DNA of 64,000 nt from an uncultured Gemmatimonadota bacterium (GTDB lineage Bacteria; SM23-81; DAOVCL01). Of the stretch, positions 1 to 15,782 are shown piece by piece. Numbering within the stretch: the stretch's first letter is position 1; every line of letters starts with the position of its first letter. Below the pieces are notes generated by a model. The model did not search any database. It was not told the DNA's origin and saw only the letters and a program-made list of their open reading frames with translations. The translations under genes were made by a program, and so were the position numbers. Location: contig CAZVGK010000001.1 of the NCBI GenBank assembly GCA_964626665.1, positions 96,001-160,000 of the forward strand. Direction: 5' to 3'.

Positions 1-633
1 CTCCGGTTAAACGACTTATATATTTTAGGGTCGTCTCCTGAGATATTGGTGAAGTTAACAAATGGTGTGGCAATAAGTAGACCTTTGGCAGGAACAAGAC
101 CCAGAGGCAGAACAGAAAAGGAAGATCGGTCTTTAGAGGTAGATCTTTTGAAGGACGAGAAAGAAGTGGCAGAACATATAATGCTTGTTGACCTTGCGAG
201 AAACGATATCGGTAGGGTATGTGAGTATGGTAGCGTAAGGGTAACAGAGCTTTTACAGATTGAAAGATATTCGAAGGTAATGCATATAGTTTCAAATGTT
301 GTTGGCAAATTGATGAAGGGCCGAGATGCCTTTGACCTTCTACGGGCGACGTTTCCAGCCGGAACGGTTTCCGGGGCACCCAAGGTAAGGGCAATGGAGA
401 TAATAGATGAGTTGGAGCCCTCAAAAAGAGGGGTTTATGCTGGTGCTATTGGGTATTTTTCCTTTTCTGGTAATATGGATATGTGTATTGCTATAAGGAC
501 AATTGTGGTAAAGGATGGGATAGGTTATATTCAGGCAGGTGCAGGTATTGTTGCTGATTCAGTACCGGAAAGAGAATATATGGAAACACTGAATAAAGCA
601 AGTGCATTAAAGAAGGCCATTGAGATAGTGTGA
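1..633 (+). CDS. trpE: Anthranilate synthase component I, C-terminal part (truncated at window start)
   Basis: Chorismate-binding motifs [48 protein letters not shown]; frame open to the left edge. Confidence 0.9.
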
Positions 634-1202
634 TGATACTGGTGATCGATAATTACGATTCATTTGTTTATAATCTTGTTCAATATTTAGGTGAATTGGG
701 GCAAAAGCTTTTGGTTTACAGGAATGATGAGATTACCGTCAGGGATGTGAGAAAGATTAACCCCTCTTTTATAGTCGTTTCTCCTGGCCCTTGCACACCC
801 CAGGAGTCTGGAATCAGTCGGGAAATTATTTCCGCTTTTGCAGGGGAGATTCCCATACTCGGAGTCTGCCTGGGGCATCAATCGATTGGAGAGGTCTTTG
901 GGGGCCGGGTCATCAGGGCCAACGCTGTGGTTCACGGAAAGACATCGAAAATATATCATGATGGGAAAACTATTTTTCGTGGGATTAAAAGTCCTTTTAT
1001 TGCAACACGTTATCACTCACTCATTATTGAAAAAGAGAGTTCGCCTGACTGCCTTGAGATTAGTGCTAGAACAGAAGATGGAATTATCATGGGAATAAGA
1101 CATAAGATGTTTAATGTGGAAGGTGTCCAATTCCATCCGGAATCTGTATTAACAAAGGTAGGTAAACAAATATTGAAGAACTTTTTAAGAGGTGTAAAGT
1201 GA
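630..1202 (+). CDS. trpG: Anthranilate/aminodeoxychorismate synthase component II (glutamine amidotransferase)
   Basis: IDNYDSF, SPGP, GVCLGHQ, RYHSL and QFHPES motifs; overlaps the trpE stop. Confidence 0.92.
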
Positions 1203-1591: not shown

Positions 1592-1627
1592 TTGACTTTT
1601 TTTGATATCTGATATATTATATATCAG
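1592..1627 (+). promoter_or_regulatory. Sigma70-type promoter overlapped by a palindromic operator
   Basis: TTGACT (1592-1597), 17 bp, TATTAT (1615-1620); palindrome CTGATATA-TTA-TATATCAG at 1609-1627. Confidence 0.75.
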
Positions 1628-1640
1628 TTGGGAGGTAAAA

Positions 1641-2375
1641 ATGGATAATGAAAATGGGCTTTTGAATCTCAAATCGCTTAAACAGCAGGTTTACGAATAT
1701 TTAAGGAAACAGATGGGCAAAGGAAATATCCTTCCAGGCTCGGTTATAAATCTCAATAAGACTGCAAAGCAGCTTGGGATAAGCAAGACTCCTCTGAGGG
1801 AAGCCCTTATCCAGCTTGAGATGGATGAATTCGTCAGGATTCTACCAAGGAAAGGAATTGTTGTGAATGTTTTAACTCTCAGGGATATAAAGGATTTTTA
1901 CCAGCTCATAGGTTCTCTTGAAAGGTCGGCTGTGCTTTCTGCATTCGCAAAAATAGGAAGGGAAAAAATAGAAGAGATGGAGAAGCTCAATAGGAAAATG
2001 CAAGAGGCCATAGAAAACGGTGGTTTTGATATCTATTACCAGAAGAACTTAGAATTTCACAATACATATCTTAATCTTTGTCAGAACAAACACCTTGTTA
2101 AGATAGTAAATACCCTTAAGAAAAGACTTTACGATTTCCCGCGACAGAGGGGATATCTAAAAGAATGGGAAGAAGCTTCAATAAAGGAGCACGAGAAGTT
2201 TCTAAATTTCTTAAAAGAAAATAACCCCAGGTTAGCAGCAGACTATATCAGGGATGTCCACTGGTTCTTTGAAGTCCAGAAAAAGTTCATTAAGAAGTAT
2301 TATCCTCTAAAGGAATATCAGAAAAGATTAGAGGAAACCCTTGGGGAAAGATATACGAAGGAAGCCGTTGATTAA
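1641..2375 (+). CDS. GntR-family (FCD) transcriptional regulator
   Basis: wHTH LGISKTPLREAL...PRKG and C-terminal FCD-like NLEFH...EH; GGAGG RBS before ATG 1641. Confidence 0.9.
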   Translation: MDNENGLLNLKSLKQQVYEYLRKQMGKGNILPGSVINLNKTAKQLGISKTPLREALIQLEMDEFVRILPRKGIVVNVLTLRDIKDFYQLIGSLERSAVLSAFAKIGREKIEEMEKLNRKMQEAIENGGFDIYYQKNLEFHNTYLNLCQNKHLVKIVNTLKKRLYDFPRQRGYLKEWEEASIKEHEKFLNFLKENNPRLAADYIRDVHWFFEVQKKFIKKYYPLKEYQKRLEETLGERYTKEAVD

Positions 2376-3270
2376 AGGTATGATATTTGATATAAAAAGA
2401 TATGCCATCCACGATGGGCCTGGAATAAGAACGACAATATTTTTTAAAGGCTGTCCTCTAAGATGCCCATGGTGCCACAACCCGGAGGGTGTAAAAAAAG
2501 AGCAGGAAATTATGTTGTGGCAGGACAGATGCACAAAATGCGGTGATTGTGTCCCCGTGTGTCCTTACAGGGCAATTTCCATAGACAGAAATCTTTCCAT
2601 TGATTGGGGAAAATGTGACCTCTGCGGGGAATGTATAAAAGTATGCCATCCAAAGGCAATAGAAATGGTGGGAAGAGAAATTTCCGTTGAAGAGGTGGTG
2701 AGGGAAATAGAAAAGGACATAGTTTTCTACGATGAATCAGGTGGAGGAGCAACTTTCTCAGGGGGAGAGCCGTTCTTCCAGCCGAAATTTCTTGAGGCCC
2801 TTCTAAAAGAATGCAAGAAAAGATACATAAACACGGCAGTTGATACCTCAGGCTATGTTAGCAAGGAAATTCTCTCAGGGCTAAGCGACTATATTGACCT
2901 TTTCCTCTATGATTTAAAGATAATGGACAGTGAAAAGCACAGTAAATACACAGGGGTACCAAACGAATTGATTCTTGAAAATTTGAGGGAGCTTTTGAAA
3001 AGGGGAAAAAGAGTAAATGTTCGCCTTCCCCTTATTCCAAAAGTAAATGGTGATAGAAAGGGTATAGAGAAAACAGGTGAGTTCCTCGCATCTCTTCCTA
3101 ACCTAAAAGGTGTAAATCTTCTTCCTTATCACAATACCTGGGTCAATAAATTTAAGAGACTCTCAAGGGAGTGGAAACCATATATAACTCCTCCTCTATC
3201 CCGGGAAAAGGTGGAGGAAGTGAAATCAAGACTTGAGAAATATGGGTTGGAAATAAAAATAGGAGGGTAA
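2368..3270 (+). CDS. Glycyl-radical enzyme activating enzyme (radical SAM with ferredoxin insert)
   Basis: HDGPGIRT, GCPLRCPWCHNPE, two CxxCxxCxxxC motifs, SGGEP; start uncertain (TTG 2368 or ATG 2380). Confidence 0.95.
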   Translation: MIKGMIFDIKRYAIHDGPGIRTTIFFKGCPLRCPWCHNPEGVKKEQEIMLWQDRCTKCGDCVPVCPYRAISIDRNLSIDWGKCDLCGECIKVCHPKAIEMVGREISVEEVVREIEKDIVFYDESGGGATFSGGEPFFQPKFLEALLKECKKRYINTAVDTSGYVSKEILSGLSDYIDLFLYDLKIMDSEKHSKYTGVPNELILENLRELLKRGKRVNVRLPLIPKVNGDRKGIEKTGEFLASLPNLKGVNLLPYHNTWVNKFKRLSREWKPYITPPLSREKVEEVKSRLEKYGLEIKIGG

Positions 3271-3271
3271 A

Positions 3272-5635
3272 ATGACTGAGAGGGTAAAAAAATTAAGGCA
3301 AAAAAGCGTAAACACGGAACCCTATGTTTCATCGGAAAGGGCTGAGCTTCTGACAGAATTTTACAGGTCTGGTGTGCCGCACAGGGTGGCGACCCCGATT
3401 ACCCGTGCCTTAGCGCTTAAATACATAATGGAGCACAAGAAGATTTCCATAGATGAAGGGGAGCTAATAGTTGGAGAGAGGGGACCTGCTCCAAGGTCAA
3501 CTCCGACATATCCTGAACTCTGCACCCATACTCTAAAGGACTTTGAGGTAATGAGCAGCAGAGATAAGACAAGGTTCCAGGTTTCAGATGAGGTGAAGAA
3601 GGTTTACAGAGAGAAAATAATTCTGTTCTGGGAGGGAAAAACTATGAGGGAAAGGGTCTTTGGAACTATGTCAAAGGAATGGCACGATACTTTTGAAGCA
3701 GGAGTTTTTACAGAGTTTATGGAGCAGCGAGCACCTGGACATGCAATATTGGATGACAAGATTTACCATAAGGGTATGGAAGATTTCAAGGGAAAAATAG
3801 ATGAAAGGATAACACAACTGGATTATTTCAATGACCCTGATGCATATAAAAAGGAACAGGAGCTTAAAGCTATGAAAATTGCGGCAGACGCCATCACAAT
3901 CCTTGCAGGCAGATACTCAAAGCTTGCAAAGCAGCTCGCAGAGAAGGAGAAAAATCCTCAGAGGAAAAATGAACTTGAAAAAATTGCCGGGGTTTGCTCT
4001 TATGTCCCCACCCATGCCCCAAGGGATTTCTGGGAAGCTCTCCAGATGTACTGGTTCATCCACCTTGGGGTTATAACTGAGCTGAATGTATGGGATTCGT
4101 TTAATCCGGGCCGCATTGACCTTAACCTTTATCTTTTTTACAAAAAGGACATTGAGGAAGGAAAACTCTCAGGGGATTTTGCAAAGGAACTCCTTGAATG
4201 CTTCTGGATAAAATTCAACAACCAGCCAGCTCCTCCTAAAGTAGGTGTAACAGAGGAACAAAGTGCAACCTATCAGGATTTTTCTCTTATAAATGTTGGG
4301 GGACTCAAAAAGGATGGTTCAAATGCTGTAAACGAACTTTCATATCTCACGCTTGATGTCCTTGAAGAAATGGAAATAATGATGCCGAGCGTATGCGTTC
4401 AGCTCAGCAAGAAAAACCCTGATGCTTTTCTGAAAAGGGCAATTAAGGTTGTAAAGAAAGGTTTCGGCCAGCCATCCTTCTTCAATACAGATGCCATAAT
4501 CATGGAATTTCTGAGACAGGGAAAAAGCATTGAAGATGCAAGACTTGGAGGACCAAGCGGATGCGTAACAATAAGTGCCTTTGGAAAGGAAAGCTGCACC
4601 CTCACAGGGTATATGAACTGGCCCAAGATACTGGAGATTACACTAAACAATGGTATAGACCCTCGTACAGGGAAAAAGGTGGGGATAGAAACTGGGAAAC
4701 CAGAGAACTTCAAGAGCTTTGAGGATCTTATGGAAACTTACAGAAAACAGCTAAAATACTTTGTGGATATAAAGATCAAGGGAAACAGCATAATAGAAAG
4801 GCTCTATGCCCAATATATGCCAGCTCCTTTCATGTCCCTTCTCATGGATGATTGCATAAAAAAGGGAAGAGACTATCACGATGGAGGACCCAGATATAAT
4901 ACAACATACATCCAGGGAGTCGGAATGGGAACTATTACAGACTCCTTATCCGCTATAAAATACCATGTGTATGATAAGAGAAACCTTGAAATGAATGAAC
5001 TTCTGAAAGCTCTGAGGAAGAATTTTGAGGATAACGAAAAGATAAGACAGATGCTGTGGAACGAAGCTCCAAAATACGGGAATGACGATGATTACGCGGA
5101 TAAGATTGCAAAGGAAATTTTTGAAGCCTATTTCAAAGTTTTAGATGGAAGACCCAACACAAAAGGTGGAAAATACAGGGTAAATCTCCTTCCAACAACT
5201 GTCCACATATACTTCGGAAAAGTCACAGGTGCAACCCCCAATGGAAGGAAAGCAGGTGAGCCTTTATCCGATGGTGTTTCCCCAACTCAGGGTGCTGATA
5301 AATATGGTCCAACAGCAGCGGTAAAGTCCGTCGCAAAATTTGACCATATAAGAACAGGAGGAACTCTCCTCAATCAGAAATTTATGCCCAAGCTCCTTGA
5401 AGATGATGAGGGTATTGACAAACTTGCCTATTTAGTGAGAACCTATTTCAGGTATGACGGGCACCATATTCAATTCAATGTTATCAGCGCAAAAACCCTC
5501 AGGGAAGCCCAGAAATACCCTGAAAAATACAAAAACCTCATAGTGAGGGTTGCAGGTTACAGCGATTACTTCGTTAATCTCGGCAGTGACCTTCAGAATG
5601 AAATAATCGCAAGAACAGAGCATGAAAATTTTTAA
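3272..5635 (+). CDS. Glycyl radical enzyme, HypD (trans-4-hydroxy-L-proline dehydratase)-like, variant active site
   Basis: RVAGYS glycyl loop; HypD-like segments EQRAPGH, WDSFNPGR, SATYQDF, LTGYMN, LPTTVHIYFG; Cys loop reads SGCVT, not SGCVE. Confidence 0.9.
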   Translation: MTERVKKLRQKSVNTEPYVSSERAELLTEFYRSGVPHRVATPITRALALKYIMEHKKISIDEGELIVGERGPAPRSTPTYPELCTHTLKDFEVMSSRDKTRFQVSDEVKKVYREKIILFWEGKTMRERVFGTMSKEWHDTFEAGVFTEFMEQRAPGHAILDDKIYHKGMEDFKGKIDERITQLDYFNDPDAYKKEQELKAMKIAADAITILAGRYSKLAKQLAEKEKNPQRKNELEKIAGVCSYVPTHAPRDFWEALQMYWFIHLGVITELNVWDSFNPGRIDLNLYLFYKKDIEEGKLSGDFAKELLECFWIKFNNQPAPPKVGVTEEQSATYQDFSLINVGGLKKDGSNAVNELSYLTLDVLEEMEIMMPSVCVQLSKKNPDAFLKRAIKVVKKGFGQPSFFNTDAIIMEFLRQGKSIEDARLGGPSGCVTISAFGKESCTLTGYMNWPKILEITLNNGIDPRTGKKVGIETGKPENFKSFEDLMETYRKQLKYFVDIKIKGNSIIERLYAQYMPAPFMSLLMDDCIKKGRDYHDGGPRYNTTYIQGVGMGTITDSLSAIKYHVYDKRNLEMNELLKALRKNFEDNEKIRQMLWNEAPKYGNDDDYADKIAKEIFEAYFKVLDGRPNTKGGKYRVNLLPTTVHIYFGKVTGATPNGRKAGEPLSDGVSPTQGADKYGPTAAVKSVAKFDHIRTGGTLLNQKFMPKLLEDDEGIDKLAYLVRTYFRYDGHHIQFNVISAKTLREAQKYPEKYKNLIVRVAGYSDYFVNLGSDLQNEIIARTEHENF

Positions 5636-5686
5636 AAAAGGAGATATAAATTTTCAAAACTGAAATTTATGTGAAAAGGAGGAAAA

Positions 5687-6880
5687 ATGAGAGCAAAATT
5701 CGATTGGAAACCTCCAGAAGATTGGCCTGTGATTTTCACAATAGATGCGCATGCAGGAGGAGAACCTCTGAGGATAATTGTAGGAGGGCTCCCCAAAATT
5801 CCTGGGAAAACAATACTTGAAAAGAGAAGGTATGCCATGGAGAACCTGGACTACCTGAGGAAAGGACTTATGGGGGAACCGAGAGAACATGCAGATATGT
5901 ATGGAGCAATAATCACAGAACCAGTTTCATCAGAAGCAGATCTAGGAGTGCTTTTCCTTCACAATGAGGGATTTAGCACGATGTGTGGCCATGGAATTAT
6001 AGGGCTCACCACAGTGTTGCTTGAGACAGGGATACTACCCATGGAAGCTCCTGAAACAGTGCTCAAAATAGATGCACCTGCAGGGCTTATTACTGCCCAT
6101 GCAAGGATAAAAGGAAATAGGGTGAAAAGTGTCTATTTCCACAACGTTCCGTCTTTTGTCCTTGTTCTTGATGAAACTCTAAATGTTCCAGGAATCGGTA
6201 AGGTTAAATACGACATTGCCTTTGGCGGTGCATTTTATGCCTTTATAAATGCGGAAGAAATAGGTCTTTCCTGTAATCCCGAAAATTACAGGGAGCTTAT
6301 AGCGAAAGGAACAGCAATAAAAAAAGCGGTTATGAAAACAAGACCAATAAACCACCCATTTGATAAAGATTTAAGTTTTCTATACGGTACAATCTTTATT
6401 TGCCCGGCAGAAAAAAAATCCCACAGTAGAAATGTCTGCATATGAATATAAAGTCAACTCTTCCCATAAGGAGTTAATCCTATTATCTTGAAAGGGTTCT
6501 GAGACATTGAAGAGCGAAAGCACTTGTAGTCCCTGGAACTCATATAGAATTTAGGAAAAGTGTGTTGAGATTGAGAGTCAACCTTATATTCATATGTCTG
6601 CATATTTGCAGGGGGCGAAGTTGACAGGAGTCCAACGGGGACAGGTGTAAGTGCCAGGCTCGCTCTGAATTACGCAAGGGGAGAAATAAGTATTGAGCAG
6701 CCAATAGTGATTGAAAGCATTATTGGGACGAAATTTACAGGAAAGGTGGTGAGAGCTATAAAATTCGGACCATATAATGCAGTTATACCTGAGGTTGAAG
6801 GGAGCGCCCATATCGTGGGAAAGAACCAGTGGATTTTCGACCCCGAAGACCCTCTACAATTCGGATTTTTCCTGAGATGA
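5687..6880 (+). pseudogene. Proline racemase family, Cys/Thr type (trans-3-hydroxy-L-proline dehydratase-like), interrupted by a 162-bp insertion
   Basis: IDAHAGGEPLR and STMCGHG in the 5' half; after the insertion the frame resumes FAGGEVDRSPTGTGVSAR...DPLQFGFFLR* (TGA 6878-6880). Confidence 0.9.
6442..6593. mobile_element. Non-autonomous MITE-like insertion with terminal inverted repeats and target duplication
   Basis: Ends ATGAATATAAAGTCAACTCT and AGAGTCAACCTTATATTCAT are imperfect inverted repeats; ATGTCTGCAT duplicated at 6432-6441 and 6594-6603. Confidence 0.85.
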
Positions 6881-7310
6881 ACTATAGGAAAATAAGATTT
6901 CTTTCTGCCCGGGATGTGAAAAGTTCTCTCTTCATGAAGGAAGCAATAGATGTAGTGGAAAAAACCTTTCTGCAGCTTTCAATGGGGAAGGCCACAGTCA
7001 CACAGCGCACAATTATGGAAATTTCGGGAGAGATTATTTTAAGAGCAAAGACAGTTATTGACCATAGGGAATCCTGTCTTGCCGAAGCTGGCGATCTCAT
7101 AATTCCTATGGAAGAAAGGCTTATAGACGAAAACCATATATGTGCAGAAATAGGTGAAATAATAGCTGGACAAAAGCCTGGAAGGGAAAACTCGGAAGAG
7201 GTGACATTTTCAAATCAGTTAGGAACGCTGTTCAGAATCTTGCAGCATCGAGTAAAGCTCTTGAAAATGCCGAAAATCTGAATCTGGGAATTGAAATTTC
7301 CCTGTTTTGA
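6877..7310 (+). pseudogene. Ornithine cyclodeaminase/mu-crystallin family (Pyr2C reductase-like) remnant
   Basis: N-terminal ~45 aa (IRFLSARDV..MKEAIDVVE) fused directly to the C-terminal EAGDL..EIGEIIAGQKPGR; frameshift before FKSVRNAVQNLAA. Confidence 0.8.
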
Positions 7311-7329
7311 GTCCTGAAAAGAGCAAAAT

Positions 7330-8234
7330 ATGGAAGATATAAGAACAAGAACTATAAAATCAGACCTTTTATTACTGCTCACGGCAGCCATCTGGGGCTT
7401 TGCCTTTGTTGCCCAGAGGGCAGGAATGAAATATGTGGGTCCCTTCACATTCAATGGAGTGCGCTTTGCTCTGGGAAGCCTGATCCTTATCCCATTACTT
7501 TTAATAAGAAAACCTCCAGTTCGGACAGCGAAACAAGGACTGGCTCTTCCTGGATTCCTTGCAGGCACTGCAATCTTCCTTGGCGCTTCTTTGCAACAAG
7601 TAGGCTTAATTTACACCACAGCAGGAAAAGCAGGCTTTATTACAGGATTGTATGTGATAATCGTTCCTATCCTTGGCCTTATAGGAGGAAAAGATCAGGG
7701 ACAGGAGTCTGGATTGGAGCACTCCTCGCAGTTGTTGGTCTCTATTTTCTCAGCATAAGAGCCAATTTTTCCATGGTAAAAGGAGATCTTCTGGTCCTTA
7801 CAGGGGCCTTTTTCTGGGCAGTACATGTTCATCTTATAGGAAAATTTTCCCCAAGAGTTGACACAATAAAGCTGGCATTTCTTCAGTTTGTAACTTGCTC
7901 TGGACTTAGCTTTATAGTGGCCATTCTTGTTGAAAAAATTAATCTGGCACAAATACTGGCTGCCTGGATTCCAATTATTTACGCAGGAATCTTCTCCTCA
8001 GGGATTGCCTACACACTTCAGGTAGTTGCGCAGAAGGAAGCACACCCATCCCATGCAGCTATAATCCTCAGTCTTGAGGCAGTCTTTGCCGTTATTGGTG
8101 GATGGATGATTTTAGGTGAGAGGCTCTCTGCAAGGGAGGTTTTGGGTTGTGTCCTTATGCTTGCAGGGATGATAATCTCCCAGCTCTATCTTTCTTACCT
8201 TCAAAGGAAAACAAAGAAGACGGTGGTTTTGTGA
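7330..8234 (+). pseudogene. DMT/EamA transporter, frameshifted near 7685
   Basis: AIWGFAFVAQ..GPFTFNGVRF..TTAGKAGFITGLY in ORF 1; second frame GTGVWIGALLAVVGLYFL runs into ORF 7773-8234 with the second EamA repeat. Confidence 0.8.
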
Positions 8235-8480
8235 AAGTAACTTTAAAGGAAGAGCCTTTAAAGCATATCATGGCAGGTCAATGGGGTCAGGCTGAAAAAT
8301 AGAAATTAAGGAGATAGAGGAGGGCAACCCGAAAGTGCTTGGCAGTTTCTGCCCCACCGTCCCCTGTTTCCGATAATTGTTATTTAAAGGTTTGGCCACG
8401 ATCCCTCCACAAAGGTAAGCAGGACAGCCTCGATGATGGCAAAAAGCTAGAACTGACCTCTTACTGCTCAACCGAACTGT

Positions 8481-8744
8481 TCAACTCCTGTATATCTCTT
8501 TCCGGTGTCGGACGGTATAGAGAATAATTTGGTCGCCCTCAATGTCGTACCTGATGCGGTAGGGCCAGGCCACCCAACGCCATCTGGCAAAGGGTTTGGC
8601 TTTTAGTTTTCGCCCTTGATAAGGGTCCTTGAGCAGGGAATCTAAGGCCCGGTCCACCTTTTTCCGATCATTGGGGGCGACCTTCTTTTTTAGATCTCTC
8701 AAGAAAGTGTCTGTGGGAACCAGCTTAAATTTGGCTTTAAGCAT
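8481..8744 (-). CDS. RelE/ParE-family toxin
   Basis: 87 aa basic protein, DPYQGRKLK...YRIRY...VRHRKEIY. Confidence 0.85.
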   Translation of the reverse strand: MLKAKFKLVPTDTFLRDLKKKVAPNDRKKVDRALDSLLKDPYQGRKLKAKPFARWRWVAWPYRIRYDIEGDQIILYTVRHRKEIYRS

Positions 8745-8747
8745 CTC

Positions 8748-9044
8748 TTAGGTATGTAAGATCTTTTTAATCTCCTCTGCTGTCCCCACTTTACCTTGTT
8801 CAAATTCCAGCCTTGCTTTTTCTAAGTCTTTTTGAAACTTAGAGTCTAACTCCTCAGCCATGGTATCAACCATATCCAGTAAATTCTCGTAATCTTCCAC
8901 AGCTAACATAACCGCCGCAGGTTTTTCCAGTTTGGTAATCAAATAAGGTTGATGACCATAACTTACTGTATCCAGAATTTCTCCTAAGTTGTTGCGTGCT
9001 TTTTTAGCACTAACAGTTTTGGGGGTTTTAAACATAGGTTTCAA
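8748..9044 (-). CDS. Phd/YefM-family antitoxin
   Basis: VSAKKARNNLGEILD...YLITK...PAAVMLAVEDYE; directly upstream of the toxin. Confidence 0.85.
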   Translation of the reverse strand: MKPMFKTPKTVSAKKARNNLGEILDTVSYGHQPYLITKLEKPAAVMLAVEDYENLLDMVDTMAEELDSKFQKDLEKARLEFEQGKVGTAEEIKKILHT

Positions 9045-9084
9045 TTTAATCCTCCTTGCTTAGGTGTGGAGTTTACCTACTTTC

Positions 9085-9113
9085 AAGATATAAAATATTC
9101 CCCAGGGTGTCAA
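9085..9113 (-). promoter_or_regulatory. Sigma70-type promoter of the TA operon
   Basis: Minus strand TTGACA-N17-TATCTT; short palindrome TAGGT..ACCTA at 9061-9079 could be the operator. Confidence 0.6.
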
Positions 9114-9212
9114 GGATTTTCAAACAAAAAAATATGGAAGTTCATCTGGTTCACCTCTAATTTCGTTGATGGCATAAATCATTTATTTTCAGAAGGTTTT
9201 TGTCAGGCTATA

Positions 9213-9252
9213 AAATAGCAACCTCCCGCAGATTTGACATCTGCGGGAGGTT
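9213..9252. repeat. Palindromic REP-like element, copy 1
   Basis: AAATAGC-AACCTCCCGCAGAT-ttgac-ATCTGCGGGAGGTT; second copy at 26301-26340. Confidence 0.85.
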
Positions 9253-9294
9253 TAACATTCTTGCTCAGCTTGATAGTATAGGCAATTCCATTTT

Positions 9295-9550
9295 GAACGC
9301 AGATTTTGCATGTCATTGCGAGCGCGGCGAAGCAATGTCTCATTTAGTGTCATTGCGAACGAAGTGAAGCAATCTCCAAGGGATTGCTTCATCCCGATTT
9401 CATCGGGATTCGCAACGACTTCGTCGGATTGCTTCGGCCAGTTCCCTCGTTCACACTCGGGACAAGCCTCGCAATGACACTTGAGATATCAATATGCAAA
9501 TTATAATGTGTCCCTGAGTAATCCTAAAGATCTGCGTTAATCTGCGTCCC
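9295..9550. repeat. Nested REP-like palindrome cluster (GTCATTGCGA...GAAGCAAT / GATTGCTTC...CGCAATGAC inside ACGCAGAT...ATCTGCGT)
   Basis: Two forward and two reverse arms visible; same family at 37362-37543. Confidence 0.75.
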
Positions 9551-12157: not shown

Positions 12158-13345
12158 TCATCTTTTCCTCAATGTCTCTATTTTTTTCAGTTGGTCACTT
12201 AATTGGGCCTTGATCTTCGGGTCTTTGGTCTGATTAAGATATTCCCCTATGAGTTTTGAGCCTGCAGAGATATCTGTGGTATCCTGGGTAAGCCTACCCA
12301 AGAGATAGTAACCGATCGCCACCTGAAGATAGCCCTGATTGGCCAATGAGTCGCCGGGATTTTCCTCAATGTAGGTCTTCCATACTTGGATAATTTTTAT
12401 CAATTTATCCACCTGCATCAATGTGTCGTTGGGTTCTACTCTCGGGACCCTCATTTTATCCACTACATAATGACCCAAAGCCGAAGAGGGACCATAGACT
12501 GAATCGGCAGTAATAACCTCGCCTGCTGGCTTTTCAGTTCCCCCCCTTTGGTTAACCCCTTCAATCCTTTGGCTCTTAGCCCTAACCTCTTTCCTCATTC
12601 CTCCTCCGCTGGGTTTTACCTCCCGGGACAAAGATTCTTTTTTTGACGGTCTTGCAGCCTCCATAATGCCTTCATACTTCGTAATGGGTACAAGGGAAGG
12701 GGGTGCTTTTTCTTCGGCAACCTTTGGTTGGGGGATGGTTTTCTCCTTCCTTAACATAGTCTCCCTTTTATTAACCGCTCCCTCTGAGGAAATGGCCTTC
12801 TCTTTTGTTTCATCCGTAGTGATGGATTTCGTTTCTTTCTGGAGTTTTTCAGAGTATATTTTCTTTTCTCCCTCCTCTGTGGGAAATGCCTTGCCCTTTC
12901 CCATTCCCCTGGTATCAAAACCTGGTATTTCAACAGGTCTCATGACAGGTGCCGGTGGTGTTATCCTTCCCCCGTGATATTCCATATACATTTTTCCGAT
13001 GATGAAGACCAACACAACCGCTACCAGGCCGGCTGCTATCTTTATCTTAAATGGGGAGAAGGTAAGGATATTCTCCATAAGCTTTCTGAATCTGACTGCA
13101 GGTGACCTTTCTTTTCGGACAATGATCTTCTCCCTTACCCGGCTGGAGAAGCTTTCCCAGTATTCCTGCGGTGGCTCTTTTACTTCAATTTTTTTCGCTT
13201 TCCCTTCTACCGCTTCCCAAAGGGACAGTTTCTCCTGGCATCTTTTGCACTGAGAAAGATGCTTCTGGAGTTTCCTCTTTTCTCTTTGGTTTAGCCTCCC
13301 ATCCAGGAAAAGGTAAATCAGCTTGTCAAACCCTTTGCATCTCAA
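12158..13345 (-). CDS. Zinc-binding (HxxxCxxC) transmembrane anti-sigma factor
   Basis: C..YLFLDG..KHLSQCKRC, one TM helix, long charged linker, helical C-terminus; TTG start. Confidence 0.88.
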   Translation of the reverse strand: MRCKGFDKLIYLFLDGRLNQREKRKLQKHLSQCKRCQEKLSLWEAVEGKAKKIEVKEPPQEYWESFSSRVREKIIVRKERSPAVRFRKLMENILTFSPFKIKIAAGLVAVVLVFIIGKMYMEYHGGRITPPAPVMRPVEIPGFDTRGMGKGKAFPTEEGEKKIYSEKLQKETKSITTDETKEKAISSEGAVNKRETMLRKEKTIPQPKVAEEKAPPSLVPITKYEGIMEAARPSKKESLSREVKPSGGGMRKEVRAKSQRIEGVNQRGGTEKPAGEVITADSVYGPSSALGHYVVDKMRVPRVEPNDTLMQVDKLIKIIQVWKTYIEENPGDSLANQGYLQVAIGYYLLGRLTQDTTDISAGSKLIGEYLNQTKDPKIKAQLSDQLKKIETLRKR

Positions 13346-13361
13346 CTTGACCCCCCTTATC

Positions 13362-13701
13362 TCAGATTATGGTCAGGAAACCACAAGATTTCACGAGATT
13401 GTCACAAGACATTAAAAACAACGAGTTCAAGAAAAATTGAATTCAAACCCTTCTTTCGCCTAAAAGATAAGCCCTCTTATTCTTAAAGATTCTTGTGTAA
13501 TCTGTACTACAATTTTGCAAGAACTTGTTTTGTGAGCAAAGTTTTTCAGGTTTTCTTGGCGAAAAGCGTTAAAAATCAAAGAATTACCTATGGTATTTTC
13601 CGTGAGGTTCTGAGGTAAATCGTTATGATCTTCTTATCTATTCGTGTTATTCGTGTTCTGCAATTTGTGGCCTTGTTTGGTTGCGGCTCTGCCGCGCTGT
13701 G
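13362..13701. repeat. Composite repeat, inverted partner of 11787-12105
   Basis: GGAAACCACAAGATTTCACGAGATTGTCACAAGA..TTGAATTCAAACC block shared with 27375-27450. Confidence 0.8.
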
Positions 13702-13712
13702 AAAATCCGTGC

Positions 13713-14321
13713 TTATCTGTGGTTTATGTATGTTTTGGGCTTGTATTCCTTTAACATCTTCTGCATCTTTTCCCTGGCCCTGAAGAGCCGGGACATCACC
13801 GTTCCCAAAGATACCTTCAGAGATTTAGCGATCTCCTCATAGCTTAGATCATCGTATATCCTCAATACCAACACGGCTTTATATTTTGGCGAAAGGGAAT
13901 CTATGGCCTTCTCTATCTTATTTTCCAGTTCCTTTAGGGCCAAGTGATTTGAGGGATCTGACCCGGCTGTCTCCCTCTCCAATGGGCTTGAGGTCTCTGC
14001 AAATTGGCTCTCCGATAGCACGAACTTCTCACGCTTCAGGTAATTTATGCTCAAGTTCACACATATCCGGTATAGCCAGGTATAGAAATTATATCCGGCC
14101 TTGAAGGATTTGATACTTTTGAATGCATTGATGAAGGTTTCCTGGGCAATATCGTCTGCGGCATCATGATTTTTAACCATACGATAAGCTAAGAAATAGA
14201 CTCTTTTCTGATAACGTTTCACTAATAAATCAAAGGAATATAAGTCACCTTCCTTAACTTTGGAAATCAGCTTATCGTCATTTTGGTGGTTGAAAGACGC
14301 TCGCTCGTCATTTTTGTTCAT
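13713..14321 (-). CDS. ECF RNA polymerase sigma factor
   Basis: DAADDIAQETF, FYTWLYRI, LSYEEIA..GTVMSRLFRAR; AGGTGG RBS. Confidence 0.95.
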   Translation of the reverse strand: MNKNDERASFNHQNDDKLISKVKEGDLYSFDLLVKRYQKRVYFLAYRMVKNHDAADDIAQETFINAFKSIKSFKAGYNFYTWLYRICVNLSINYLKREKFVLSESQFAETSSPLERETAGSDPSNHLALKELENKIEKAIDSLSPKYKAVLVLRIYDDLSYEEIAKSLKVSLGTVMSRLFRAREKMQKMLKEYKPKTYINHR

Positions 14322-14341
14322 TGGCACTACCACCTAATAGA

Positions 14342-14369
14342 ATACAAATTAAATTTAAAAATTATTCCC
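14342..14369 (-). promoter_or_regulatory. Candidate ECF autoregulatory promoter
   Basis: Minus strand GGGAATA-N15-TTGTAT immediately upstream of the sigma RBS. Confidence 0.65.
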
Positions 14370-14799
14370 TGAAATCTTGGGCCCTTCGTTTTTTTTTTGG
14401 GAATAGGTGATGTTTTTAATTGGGACGCAGATTTTCGCCGATAACCGCAGAAAGTTAAAATCCTGACAATCTGCGTTTATCTGTGTCCAAAAAGGAATTT
14501 CCTCTTTTTTCAAGTTAGTTCATCAAGATATGATTGTCAATAGGAAAGGGTTCTCTGGTTGTAGGACATCGTATTTAGTCGCTTTACAAGATGATCGATA
14601 GTAGTAGTTATGAGGGTAAATCAGGGATTGGGAGCGAACATTTTTAGGGGGAGCCCATCTACCGTTTCTGGTAGGTGCCTGTCCTGAGGGAGAAGAACAT
14701 TGGAAGCGTCCTCAAGATAGATGCTTGGTTAGTTTCTTTCTCTTCCTCAAAAAAATGCTTGACCACTGGCTCAGTATTTGTTATTTTAGTCTAAACCGG

Positions 14800-14873
14800 G
14801 GGCCCATAGCTCAGTTGGTTAGAGCGGCTGACCCATAATCAGTAGGTCCTAGGTTCGAGTCCTAGTGGGCCCA
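14800..14873 (+). tRNA. tRNA-Ile2(CAT) (lysidine type; elongator Met less likely), no encoded CCA
   Basis: Acceptor GGGCCCA/TGGGCCC with C4-G69 and C5-G68; anticodon stem GCTGA/TCAGT, loop CCCATAA; TTCGAGT T-loop. Confidence 0.85.
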
Positions 14874-14880
14874 TTAAGCT

Positions 14881-14954
14881 GGGCGATTAGCTCAGCCGGT
14901 TAGAGCGCTTGTTTCACATACAAGAGGTCACTGGTTCGAATCCAGTATCGCCCA
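14881..14954 (+). tRNA. tRNA-Val(CAC)
   Basis: GGGCGAT/ATCGCCC acceptor, CTTGT-TTCACAT-ACAAG anticodon arm, TTCGAAT T-loop. Confidence 0.92.
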
Positions 14955-15071
14955 TTGTTTGAACAAAGAGGGGAGGGAATAGTGAGGATACCATTTTGGA
15001 CAATATCTTGTGGAGGAAAATTTGGTTAAAGTGCACCTGGGTGCACTTTTTCTTTTGTGAAAGGGGGGTAG

Positions 15072-15782
15072 ATGTGGGAAGAGCTGAAGAGGCTCCTCCA
15101 GTTGCAGGAGATGGATGATGAGCTCTCATCATTGGAGAGGGCCAAAGTGGAGTTGCCTAAGAGGATCCAGGCCCTGGAGGAGAGGATAAAGGAAGCCAGC
15201 CAGAAGTTGGATGATGGGAAAGCTATCTTGGAGGAGCTGAAGAGGAAGAAGAGACATTCGGAGCTGGAGCTGAGGGATGCCGAGGCGGGGTTGAAGGAGT
15301 TACAGGAAAAGGTCTATGAGATAAAAACCAACAAGGAGTATGATGCCCTACAAAGTGAGACAGGGAGTAAAAAGGAGGAGATATCCAACTCCGAAGAGGA
15401 GATATTGACCCTGATGAGCCAGATAGAGGAGACGGAGGAGGAGATTGAAAAACAGGAAGGTGAGTTCGCCACGATCTCTCAGGAGAGCGGGGCTGAGTTG
15501 GAGGCCCAGAAAAGGGAGCTGGCCACCTTAGAGGAGAAGATCGCCATAAAACAAGGGGAAAGAAAGAATATAGTGGTCCGTGTCTCGCGGAAGAACCTCT
15601 CCACCTATGAAAGGATAAGCAAGGGGAAGGATGGGTTAGCCGTGGTTAGGATAAGAAAGGGGGCCTGCGGTGGCTGTTTTAAATCCCTCCCTCCCCAGAA
15701 ACTTCAGGAGATAAGGAGGAAAGATCGGCTGATAACTTGTGAAAACTGTGGTCGCATTTTGGTTTGGGATCAGGAAGATTAA
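15072..15782 (+). CDS. Coiled-coil C4 zinc-ribbon protein (DUF164/CT398/HP0958-like)
   Basis: LQEMD, long coiled coil, NKEYDAL, CGGC...CENCGRIL. Confidence 0.88.
   Translation: MWEELKRLLQLQEMDDELSSLERAKVELPKRIQALEERIKEASQKLDDGKAILEELKRKKRHSELELRDAEAGLKELQEKVYEIKTNKEYDALQSETGSKKEEISNSEEEILTLMSQIEETEEEIEKQEGEFATISQESGAELEAQKRELATLEEKIAIKQGERKNIVVRVSRKNLSTYERISKGKDGLAVVRIRKGACGGCFKSLPPQKLQEIRRKDRLITCENCGRILVWDQED

Follow-up and report, generated by a model that had tools for sequence, protein, structure and literature searches.

The glycyl radical enzyme (GRE) HypD of C. difficile, a trans-4-hydroxy-L-proline dehydratase, is the closest described relative of the enzyme considered here. In the cited passages of PMC7077986, HypD Glu436 hydrogen-bonds the leaving 4-hydroxyl and His160 and is proposed to position the leaving hydroxyl, and Asp278 is proposed to act as both base and acid. 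An earlier note on the DNA analyzed here had placed the Glu436 contact at the substrate amine, which these passages contradict. Archaeal and thermophile homologs are treated simply as HypD in the cited part of PMC6219649. The DNA in question is a 64,000-nucleotide stretch from an uncultured Gemmatimonadota bacterium (contig CAZVGK010000001.1, positions 96,001 to 160,000; the window), and it encodes an intact, oxygen-sensitive HypD-family GRE in which Glu436 is replaced by Thr. The HypD Thr variant is real, is widespread and common among uncultured microbes of sediments, and is apparently unreported. No mention of it was found in the titles and abstracts listed by searches of the open literature or in the passages cited, a scope that excludes supplements and subscription papers, including the paper on HpyG and HpzG.

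An intact HypD-family enzyme with Thr at the Glu436 position

The window GRE scores 1284.4 bits against the NCBIfam HypD equivalog NF043068 (cut-off 1100; 1284.1 bits in the genome search). Its best match in the PDB is C. difficile HypD (6vxc) with 1060 bits over residues 3–784, and the next structure scores 579 bits. The 1060 bits to 6vxc leave the fold assignment in no doubt. The Gly_radical Pfam domain spans residues 666–768 (5e-36). The 6vxc alignment sets the numbering, a window GRE residue being the HypD residue minus 3.

The sequence of the GRE Cys loop is GGPSGCVTISAFGKES. The codons TGC GTA ACA at 4562–4570 lie in the open reading frame (ORF) at 3272–5635 and give the CVT loop that had been claimed, so the glutamate of the HypD CXE motif (E436) is absent and Thr433 takes its place, encoded by ACA at 4568–4570. 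ACA is two substitutions away from GAA or GAG, and the two-position codon gap pointed out previously is thus real. The other HypD active-site residues said to be retained were all recovered in the 6vxc alignment and in a separate alignment. The window GRE has the equivalents of HypD F152, H160, D278, S334, D339, F340, C434, Y450, T645, and G765. These include the radical glycine Gly762 in the RVAGYS motif and the catalytic Cys431, the acid-base network of His157, Asp275, and Asp336 (H160, D278, and D339 in HypD), and the substrate contacts Ser331, Phe337, Tyr447, and Thr642 (S334, F340, Y450, and T645).

Active-site conservation was read from an alignment of 73 full-length rows (61 Thr and 12 Glu). 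The acid-base network is invariant in 73/73 rows. The equivalents of F152, H160, D278, S334, D339, F340, C434, Y450, and G765 are invariant in 61/61 Thr and 12/12 Glu rows, and the T645 equivalent is Thr in 60/61 Thr rows (L023 is unreadable there) and in 12/12 Glu rows. With all other HypD residues in place and only Glu436 changed, to Thr433, the core observation is confirmed. The window GRE is a member of the HypD sequence family that fails one feature held to be essential.

The GRE and activase ORFs are both open frames, in agreement with the earlier note. A dedicated radical S-adenosylmethionine (SAM) activase gene, as expected for HypD, adjoins the GRE at 2341–3270. Its product scores 383 bits against the HypD-activase equivalog NF043069, which is under the cut-off of 425. 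The regulator, activase, and GRE genes are co-directional at the start of the region. Comparison with the relative L002, whose GRE is 93% identical, gave a dN/dS of 0.087 for the GRE gene and of 0.080 for that of the activase.

Distribution and phylogeny of the Thr state

GCVT is found in 118 of the 120 best database homologs and GCVE in the other 2, in a search that favors proteins with exact words in common with the query. The genome sample consists of the best 80 of 401 relatives and is biased toward the kin of the query; Thr is present at 65/80 of these loci and Glu at 15/80. The bacterial carriers among the 80 loci are Aminicenantes-type bacteria, WOR-3, Latescibacteria, Synergistota, Planctomycetota, Chloroflexota, Thermotogota, and Bipolaricaulota, and the archaeal carriers are Bathyarchaeia, Theionarchaea, and Asgard archaea. 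Thr is the state carried in this sample by the Asgard, Bathyarchaeia, Aminicenantes-type, and WOR-3 homologs and by most of those from Thermotogota and Bipolaricaulota. Metagenomes were scanned with a pattern that permits Thr, Ala, Lys, Asn, Asp, or Glu at the E436 site, and the result is an arbitrary sample, not a census. Among the 80 metagenome matches listed, 70 have Glu, 10 have Thr, and none has Ala, Lys, Asn, or Asp.

A set of 150 GRE representatives has 107 Glu and 4 Thr at the E436 column, and one of the four Thr entries is a HypD fragment. Clustering at 50% identity reduces the HypD family to essentially one full-length representative plus fragments and yields no Glu/Thr census. Four Thr forms were scored with the NCBI HypD model, all of them above the cut-off, and some Thr forms are already named trans-4-hydroxy-L-proline dehydratase in NCBI records. 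All four ACN codons are used for Thr across 66 sequences, and Glu (GAR) is two substitutions off. CVT is not a singleton produced by decay, the outcome that the earlier note had set as grounds for abandoning its proposal; the close homologs are mostly Thr and come from many lineages. These sequences show that CVT has been conserved under selection in many lineages of both bacteria and archaea.

In trees, the Thr and Glu forms are intermingled. The trees include the Cys-loop columns, and the Glu/Thr trait itself makes up one of their 792 columns. The Glu/Thr state requires 5 changes in a FastTree tree of the 73 full-length rows. Five changes are also required in a quick IQ-TREE tree of 42 rows (every one of the 12 Glu rows and 30 Thr representatives, 31 Thr rows being omitted for speed), and at least 4 are forced by well-supported branches. 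The Glu forms L032, L038, and L040/L076 are nested within Thr groups. Forcing all Thr rows into one clade costs 399 log-likelihood units, and such a tree is rejected by the approximately unbiased (AU) test (p = 3e-8), and with it the distinct GRE subfamily that had been proposed for the Thr form.

No alignment column besides the site itself tracks the Glu/Thr switch in the 73 rows. Compensating residues were considered at HypD position 338 (T versus Q/N) and at window position 582 and were rejected, as they follow phylogeny or vary among the Thr forms. Ser at HypD position 438 is found in 59/61 Thr rows and 7/12 Glu rows, and the Glu rows with Ser438 are mostly nested among or adjoining Thr groups.

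Gene neighborhood in the window and in relatives

Table 1. Features of the HypD-family locus, in window coordinates
Feature	Position	Strand	Evidence
GntR/FCD-family regulator, first gene of the cluster	1602..2375	+	Pfam GntR 1.6e-12, FCD 2.9e-17
Glycyl-radical activating enzyme (radical SAM), intact	2341..3270	+	TIGR02494 355 bits (cut-off 174)
HypD-family GRE, 787 aa, intact	3272..5635	+	Pfam PFL-like and Gly_radical; NF043068; 6vxc
Cys-loop codons TGC GTA ACA, Cys431-Val432-Thr433	4562..4570	+	equivalent to HypD C434-V435-E436
Glycyl-radical glycine codon, Gly762 (HypD G765), RVAGYS motif	5555..5557	+	alignment, Pfam Gly_radical
M24 Xaa-Pro aminopeptidase (pepP) remnant, ~12 codons, start now ATT	5650..5686	+	aligned to pepP starts of L002 and L003
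Cys/Thr proline-racemase-family pseudogene (trans-3-hydroxy-L-proline dehydratase type)	5687..6880	+	Pfam Pro_racemase (5687-6445), NF045511
162-bp insertion, a ~150-bp MITE-like element plus the second copy of a 12-bp target duplication	6444..6605	.	terminal inverted repeats
OCD/mu-crystallin-family pseudogene (Pyr2C-reductase type)	6877..7304	+	tblastn with intact 329-aa L003 protein
EamA-family transporter gene, split by a frameshift near 7695	7330..8234	+	tblastn with intact 301-aa L003 protein, two frames

The GntR/FCD regulator gene also lies upstream of the activase in L002, L003, L010, L011, and L018. Upstream of the cluster, at window positions 1–1202, are two genes that look trpE/trpG-like from their translations: one for anthranilate synthase component I, of which the 3' part is present, and one for a glutamine amidotransferase.

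The genes downstream of the GRE are broken (Table 1). The remainder of pepP is deleted between the GRE and the dehydratase pseudogene, and tblastn found no pepP ortholog elsewhere in the genome, only 26%-identical M24 paralogs. The frame of the racemase-family pseudogene runs from 5687 to 6445 and resumes in the same frame at ~6606, and stop codons lie in the 162-bp insertion between the two parts. Both halves match NF045511, they share 71% and 69% identity with the intact L003 protein of 342 aa, and the catalytic motifs STMCGHG and DRSPTGTG are still encoded. The Cys/Thr catalytic pair, which we take to be the mark of a trans-3-hydroxy-L-proline dehydratase, is present, and the one intact chain of ~335–345 aa is missing, the frame being broken. 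The significance of the Cys/Thr pair is also given in the Figure 1 legend of PMC5144071.

The insertion is called a miniature inverted-repeat transposable element (MITE)-like element because it has terminal inverted repeats and lies between direct copies of the 12-bp sequence ATGTCTGCATAT, at 6432–6443 and 6594–6605. A second copy of the element lies on contig C29 (6558–6716; 98.75% identity in 160 nt), which makes at least two nearly identical copies in the genome, and contig C25 has a weaker, partial match. The OCD pseudogene retains residues 1–49 and 234–329 of the 329-aa L003 protein, with a deletion of ~185 codons and a frameshift near residue 298. Its Pfam match covers only profile positions 233–293 of 314, and the full length of ~320 aa with a dinucleotide-binding middle expected of a Δ1-pyrroline-2-carboxylate (Pyr2C) reductase is gone. 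The transporter gene is left as two ORFs (7330–7758 and 7773–8234), both of which encode an EamA domain. Elsewhere in the genome, tblastn found no OCD, proline-racemase-family, or AcnX gene. The two GRE neighbors described earlier as a Cys/Thr racemase-family dehydratase and an OCD reductase are therefore remnants, both being pseudogenes.

Public contigs from two runs are identical to the window over 2341–6582 and 6553–8234. They break only inside the MITE repeat, and both junctions are bridged. Because the assembly may itself have been built from those runs, this agreement does not count as independent support. Runs X21 and X22 have contigs that hold the region only in short pieces, and an X21 piece that extends <31 letters past the left MITE junction was not counted as a bridge.

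The same genes are intact in L003 and L010, two Aminicenantes-type metagenome-assembled genomes (MAGs) whose GREs are 84% and 81% identical to that of the window. Their order is gntR-activase-GRE-pepP(M24)-Cys/Thr dehydratase (342 aa)-OCD (329 aa), and the L003 operon continues with EamA (301 aa). L002 has gntR-activase-GRE-pepP followed directly by the gene that follows EamA in L003 and is without all three genes pseudogenized in the window, and L011 retains just an EamA fragment. The losses in L002, L011, and the window show that the downstream module was lost repeatedly in this lineage and that the regulator, activase, and GRE were kept, and the dN/dS of 0.087 against L002 shows that the GRE is under purifying selection without its 3-hydroxyproline (3-Hyp) partners. 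The 3-Hyp branch (dehydratase, Pyr2C-type reductase, and exporter) and the peptidase gene plausibly belong to an ancestral hydroxyproline-utilization operon that is decaying in the window.

Genes of the 3-Hyp/Pyr2C route adjoin the GRE in the window and in L003, L010, L028, L035, L065, L067, and L069, and these neighbors fall in three separate GRE lineages. A Cys/Thr racemase-family 3-Hyp dehydratase is beside the Thr GRE in L003, L010, L065, and L069. A split AcnX is beside it in L028, L035, L067, and L069 and resembles cis-3-Hyp dehydratase, with NF051439 scores below the cut-off. OCD-family reductases accompany the 3-Hyp dehydratases in L003, L010, L028, and L067. Several of the stretches at L067:4189–6878, L028 ~6500–9500, L035 ~6500–8600, and L069 ~12400–15300 hold an OCD-family and/or Cys/Thr racemase-family gene, and the arrangement in these four loci resembles the hydroxyproline cluster of aerobes in anaerobic form. 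The AcnX genes of the Heimdallarchaeotal locus L020, 6–9 kb from the GRE, were excluded from the 3-Hyp neighbor count because archaeal AcnX is presumably of the mevalonate-5-phosphate dehydratase type. Heterodimeric AcnX is a mevalonate-5-phosphate dehydratase in the cited part of PMC8184944.

Aerobic 'L-hydroxyproline gene clusters' often mix genes for trans-4-, trans-3-, and cis-3-hydroxyproline, according to the cited passages of PMC5144071, and 3-Hyp neighbors are therefore expected beside any 4-hydroxyproline enzyme. Two parts of the earlier interpretation fall here. The Pyr2C-route context is dead in the window, absent from L002, and present at just 7 of the 65 remaining Thr loci, and the step from these neighbors to a different GRE substrate fails, given the mixed clusters published for aerobes.

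A second operon type in Planctomycetota has the order activase-GRE-M3 peptidase-SSF symporter-M24 Xaa-Pro peptidase(-S9 peptidase). It contains a Glu GRE in L025, L026, L032, and L038 and a Thr GRE in L022, L036, L045, and L047, and HypD is single-copy in five of these genomes. The Planctomycetota Glu and Thr forms look like orthologs doing one job, with hydroxyproline coming from peptides rich in proline and hydroxyproline.

Two other arrangements were seen. At Asgard and other archaeal loci (L012, L017, L021, L027, L029, L031, L050, L053, and L055), the Thr GRE lies between archease plus RNA methyltransferase genes and the ribosomal L3-L4-L23-L2 operon with no adjacent activase; a GRE activase is found elsewhere in 3/5 genomes of this type and proC in 0/5. 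In a Pirellulales MAG (L022:10001–14008), the Thr GRE and the downstream M3-like peptidase form one 1335-aa open frame, which is either a real fusion or the result of a lost stop codon.

Function of the Thr form and relation to known systems

About half of our confidence goes to the reading that the Thr form is a working trans-4-hydroxy-L-proline dehydratase variant, in which Thr would position the hydroxyl and the product, Δ1-pyrroline-5-carboxylate (P5C), would be converted to glutamate. The sequences show an intact, conserved enzyme under purifying selection; what it acts on, what it makes, and the part played by Thr are inferred. Free trans-4-hydroxy-L-proline derived from peptides rich in proline and hydroxyproline would be dehydrated to P5C by the window GRE. 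The Cys431 thiyl radical would abstract the C5 hydrogen, and Asp275 (HypD D278) would deprotonate the amine and then protonate the leaving 4-hydroxyl. Thr433 and His157 would only orient the leaving hydroxyl, the non-basic role published for Glu436. Thr is mechanistically plausible because Glu436 is proposed only to position the hydroxyl and Asp278 to do the acid-base work. The shared Planctomycete operons, the single copies, and the lack of any other column that tracks the switch argue for the same role in the Glu and Thr forms. P5C would then be oxidized to glutamate by a stand-alone P5C dehydrogenase, in a genome without proC or proline dehydrogenase.

The fate of P5C was assessed in the window's genome (G000; 99.65% complete) and in its phylum. 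An L-glutamate gamma-semialdehyde (P5C) dehydrogenase is encoded (TIGR01237, 716 bits; cut-off 660). The reported absence of proC from the cluster holds and extends to the whole genome by two models and to all 7 phylum genomes searched (G000–G006), and proline dehydrogenase (Pro_dh) was not found in the window's genome. The significance given to the missing proC does not stand. It is present in 14/37 Thr and 7/13 Glu carrier genomes (Fisher p = 0.35; MAGs of unknown completeness) and in 0/5 further Asgard carriers; since both sets have proC, its absence does not distinguish the Thr form. proC was discarded as a Glu/Thr discriminator, there being no signal among the 50 carrier genomes. Co-occurrence of P5C dehydrogenase with HypD was likewise discarded as uninformative, P5C dehydrogenase being present in 7/7 phylum genomes and HypD in 2/7. 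The other HypD copy of the phylum, in G006, is the canonical GCVET form. An aldehyde dehydrogenase match of 511 bits on contig C7 (56685–58058; L092) contains one in-frame TAG, which could mark a pseudogene or a sequencing error.

Several points weigh against a working trans-4-hydroxy-L-proline dehydratase. C. difficile HypD E436Q had no detectable activity in the cited passages of PMC7077986, a result from an end-point assay of protein with only 12% glycyl radical. All six C-O-cleaving GRE eliminases keep CXE in the cited part of a June 2026 review (PMC13450708), and the three GRE isomerases do likewise. On the sequence side, the absence of intermediates, the two-substitution gap, and at least 4 switches look more like two selected states than neutral drift, and this two-state pattern could mark two functions. 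3-Hyp/Pyr2C neighbors occur at 7/65 Thr and 0/15 Glu loci, a difference that is not significant (Fisher p = 0.34). P5C dehydrogenase is only an available sink and is not linked to HypD, since it is present with or without it.

The main alternative, a less probable explanation put forward tentatively, is that the Thr forms are a different enzyme that would bind the proline scaffold alike and act on a substrate with a different group at C4 (or C3/C4). Candidate substrates are a 3,4-dihydroxyproline or another 4-hydroxyproline stereoisomer. Glu/Thr would then be a two-state specificity switch; the Thr types would not be trans-4-hydroxy-L-proline dehydratases, and they might instead have a new GRE activity on a ring-substituted proline. 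The product might feed the recurrent neighboring 3-Hyp dehydratase and Pyr2C reductase. For 3,4-dihydroxyproline, which occurs in diatom walls and freshwater glycofibrils according to published abstracts and could come from the debris of diatoms or glycoproteins, the route would lead from the 4-dehydration product to 3-hydroxyproline, Pyr2C, and proline. The sole changed active-site residue is the one that contacts the 4-substituent, the two states lack intermediates and switch repeatedly, and non-homologous 3-Hyp dehydratases stand directly beside Thr GREs in three GRE lineages and beside none of the 15 Glu GREs. The strict two-state pattern and the recurrent 3-Hyp neighbors keep this explanation alive. 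However, orthologs of both forms are found in identical operons, as single copies in the genomes checked, and the 3-Hyp association, at just 7/65 loci and not significant, is expected from isomer-mixing clusters. L002 and the window keep the GRE under purifying selection without 3-Hyp genes. The dihydroxyproline route requires a P5C-type reductase, but proC is found in 0/7 genomes of the window's phylum and 0/5 Asgard carriers.

It is highly improbable that the GRE itself is an inactive relic decaying with its neighbors. Four adjacent genes are deleted or broken, two same-genus genomes that were searched have no GRE, and E436Q is inactive in C. difficile HypD (PMC7077986, cited passages), but the GRE and activase ORFs are intact with dN/dS of 0.08–0.09, the Thr state is conserved across phyla and in both domains, and the radical glycine, catalytic Cys, and all other catalytic residues are retained.

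Least probable of all is the N-substituted hydroxyproline substrate (N-methyl-hydroxyproline or its betaine) that the earlier note had suggested would feed the adjacent Pyr2C route: GRE dehydratases for N-methyl-4-hydroxyprolines do exist (HpyG and HpzG; PMC13450708, cited part) and proC is absent from the cluster, but the amine-contacting Asp278 and Asp339 equivalents are invariant, HpyG and HpzG (8id1 and 8iof) are far more distant at 478 and 472 bits versus 1060 for HypD and both keep CXE, the Pyr2C-route neighbors are pseudogenes and not conserved, and 4-dehydration yields an imine at C5 rather than Pyr2C.

The CXE glutamate is missing from a large set of conserved HypD homologs that are under selection in both domains of life. 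If the Thr enzymes still dehydrate hydroxyproline, Glu is dispensable in HypD chemistry, which would lend natural support to the proposed mechanism in which Asp278 is base and acid and Glu only positions the hydroxyl. Otherwise, numerous annotations that assign anaerobic hydroxyproline use to sediment bacteria and to Asgard and Bathyarchaeial archaea are mistaken, and these enzymes catalyze a GRE reaction yet to be discovered. The question can be tested directly in natural sister pairs with different residues at the E436 site (L032/L022 and L038/L047).

The window GRE resembles C. difficile HypD (6VXC/6VXE; NF043068) in its full-length alignment, glycyl-radical and Cys loops, His160/Asp278/Asp339 network, carboxylate and ring contacts (S334, F340, Y450, and T645), and adjacent activase gene. 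It differs in having Thr for Glu436 and in nearby loop residues, the loop being SGCVTISAFGKES in the window and SGCVETGCFGKEA in the 6vxc chain. It also differs in that its genome has no proC, adjoining or elsewhere, and the carriers of Thr forms are uncultured environmental bacteria and archaea, not gut Clostridia. HpyG, HpzG, and a third GRE likewise have hydroxyproline-type rings as substrates, and their thiyl radical is placed beside C5 or C4; they score only 478, 472, and 417 bits and all keep CXE (PMC13450708, cited part). The aerobic Lhp cluster (Watanabe et al. 2016, PMC5144071), as described in the cited passages, combines a trans-4-hydroxyproline route, a trans-3-hydroxyproline dehydratase of the Cys/Thr racemase family, and an AcnX cis-3-hydroxyproline dehydratase with a Pyr2C reductase, a transporter, and a regulator, which matches the L003/L010 and L028/L067 layouts. 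The 3-Hyp branch of the window is pseudogenized in comparison, and the epimerase, oxidase, and deaminase of the aerobic 4-hydroxyproline branch (PMC5144071, same passages) have an anaerobic radical enzyme in their place in the window and its relatives.

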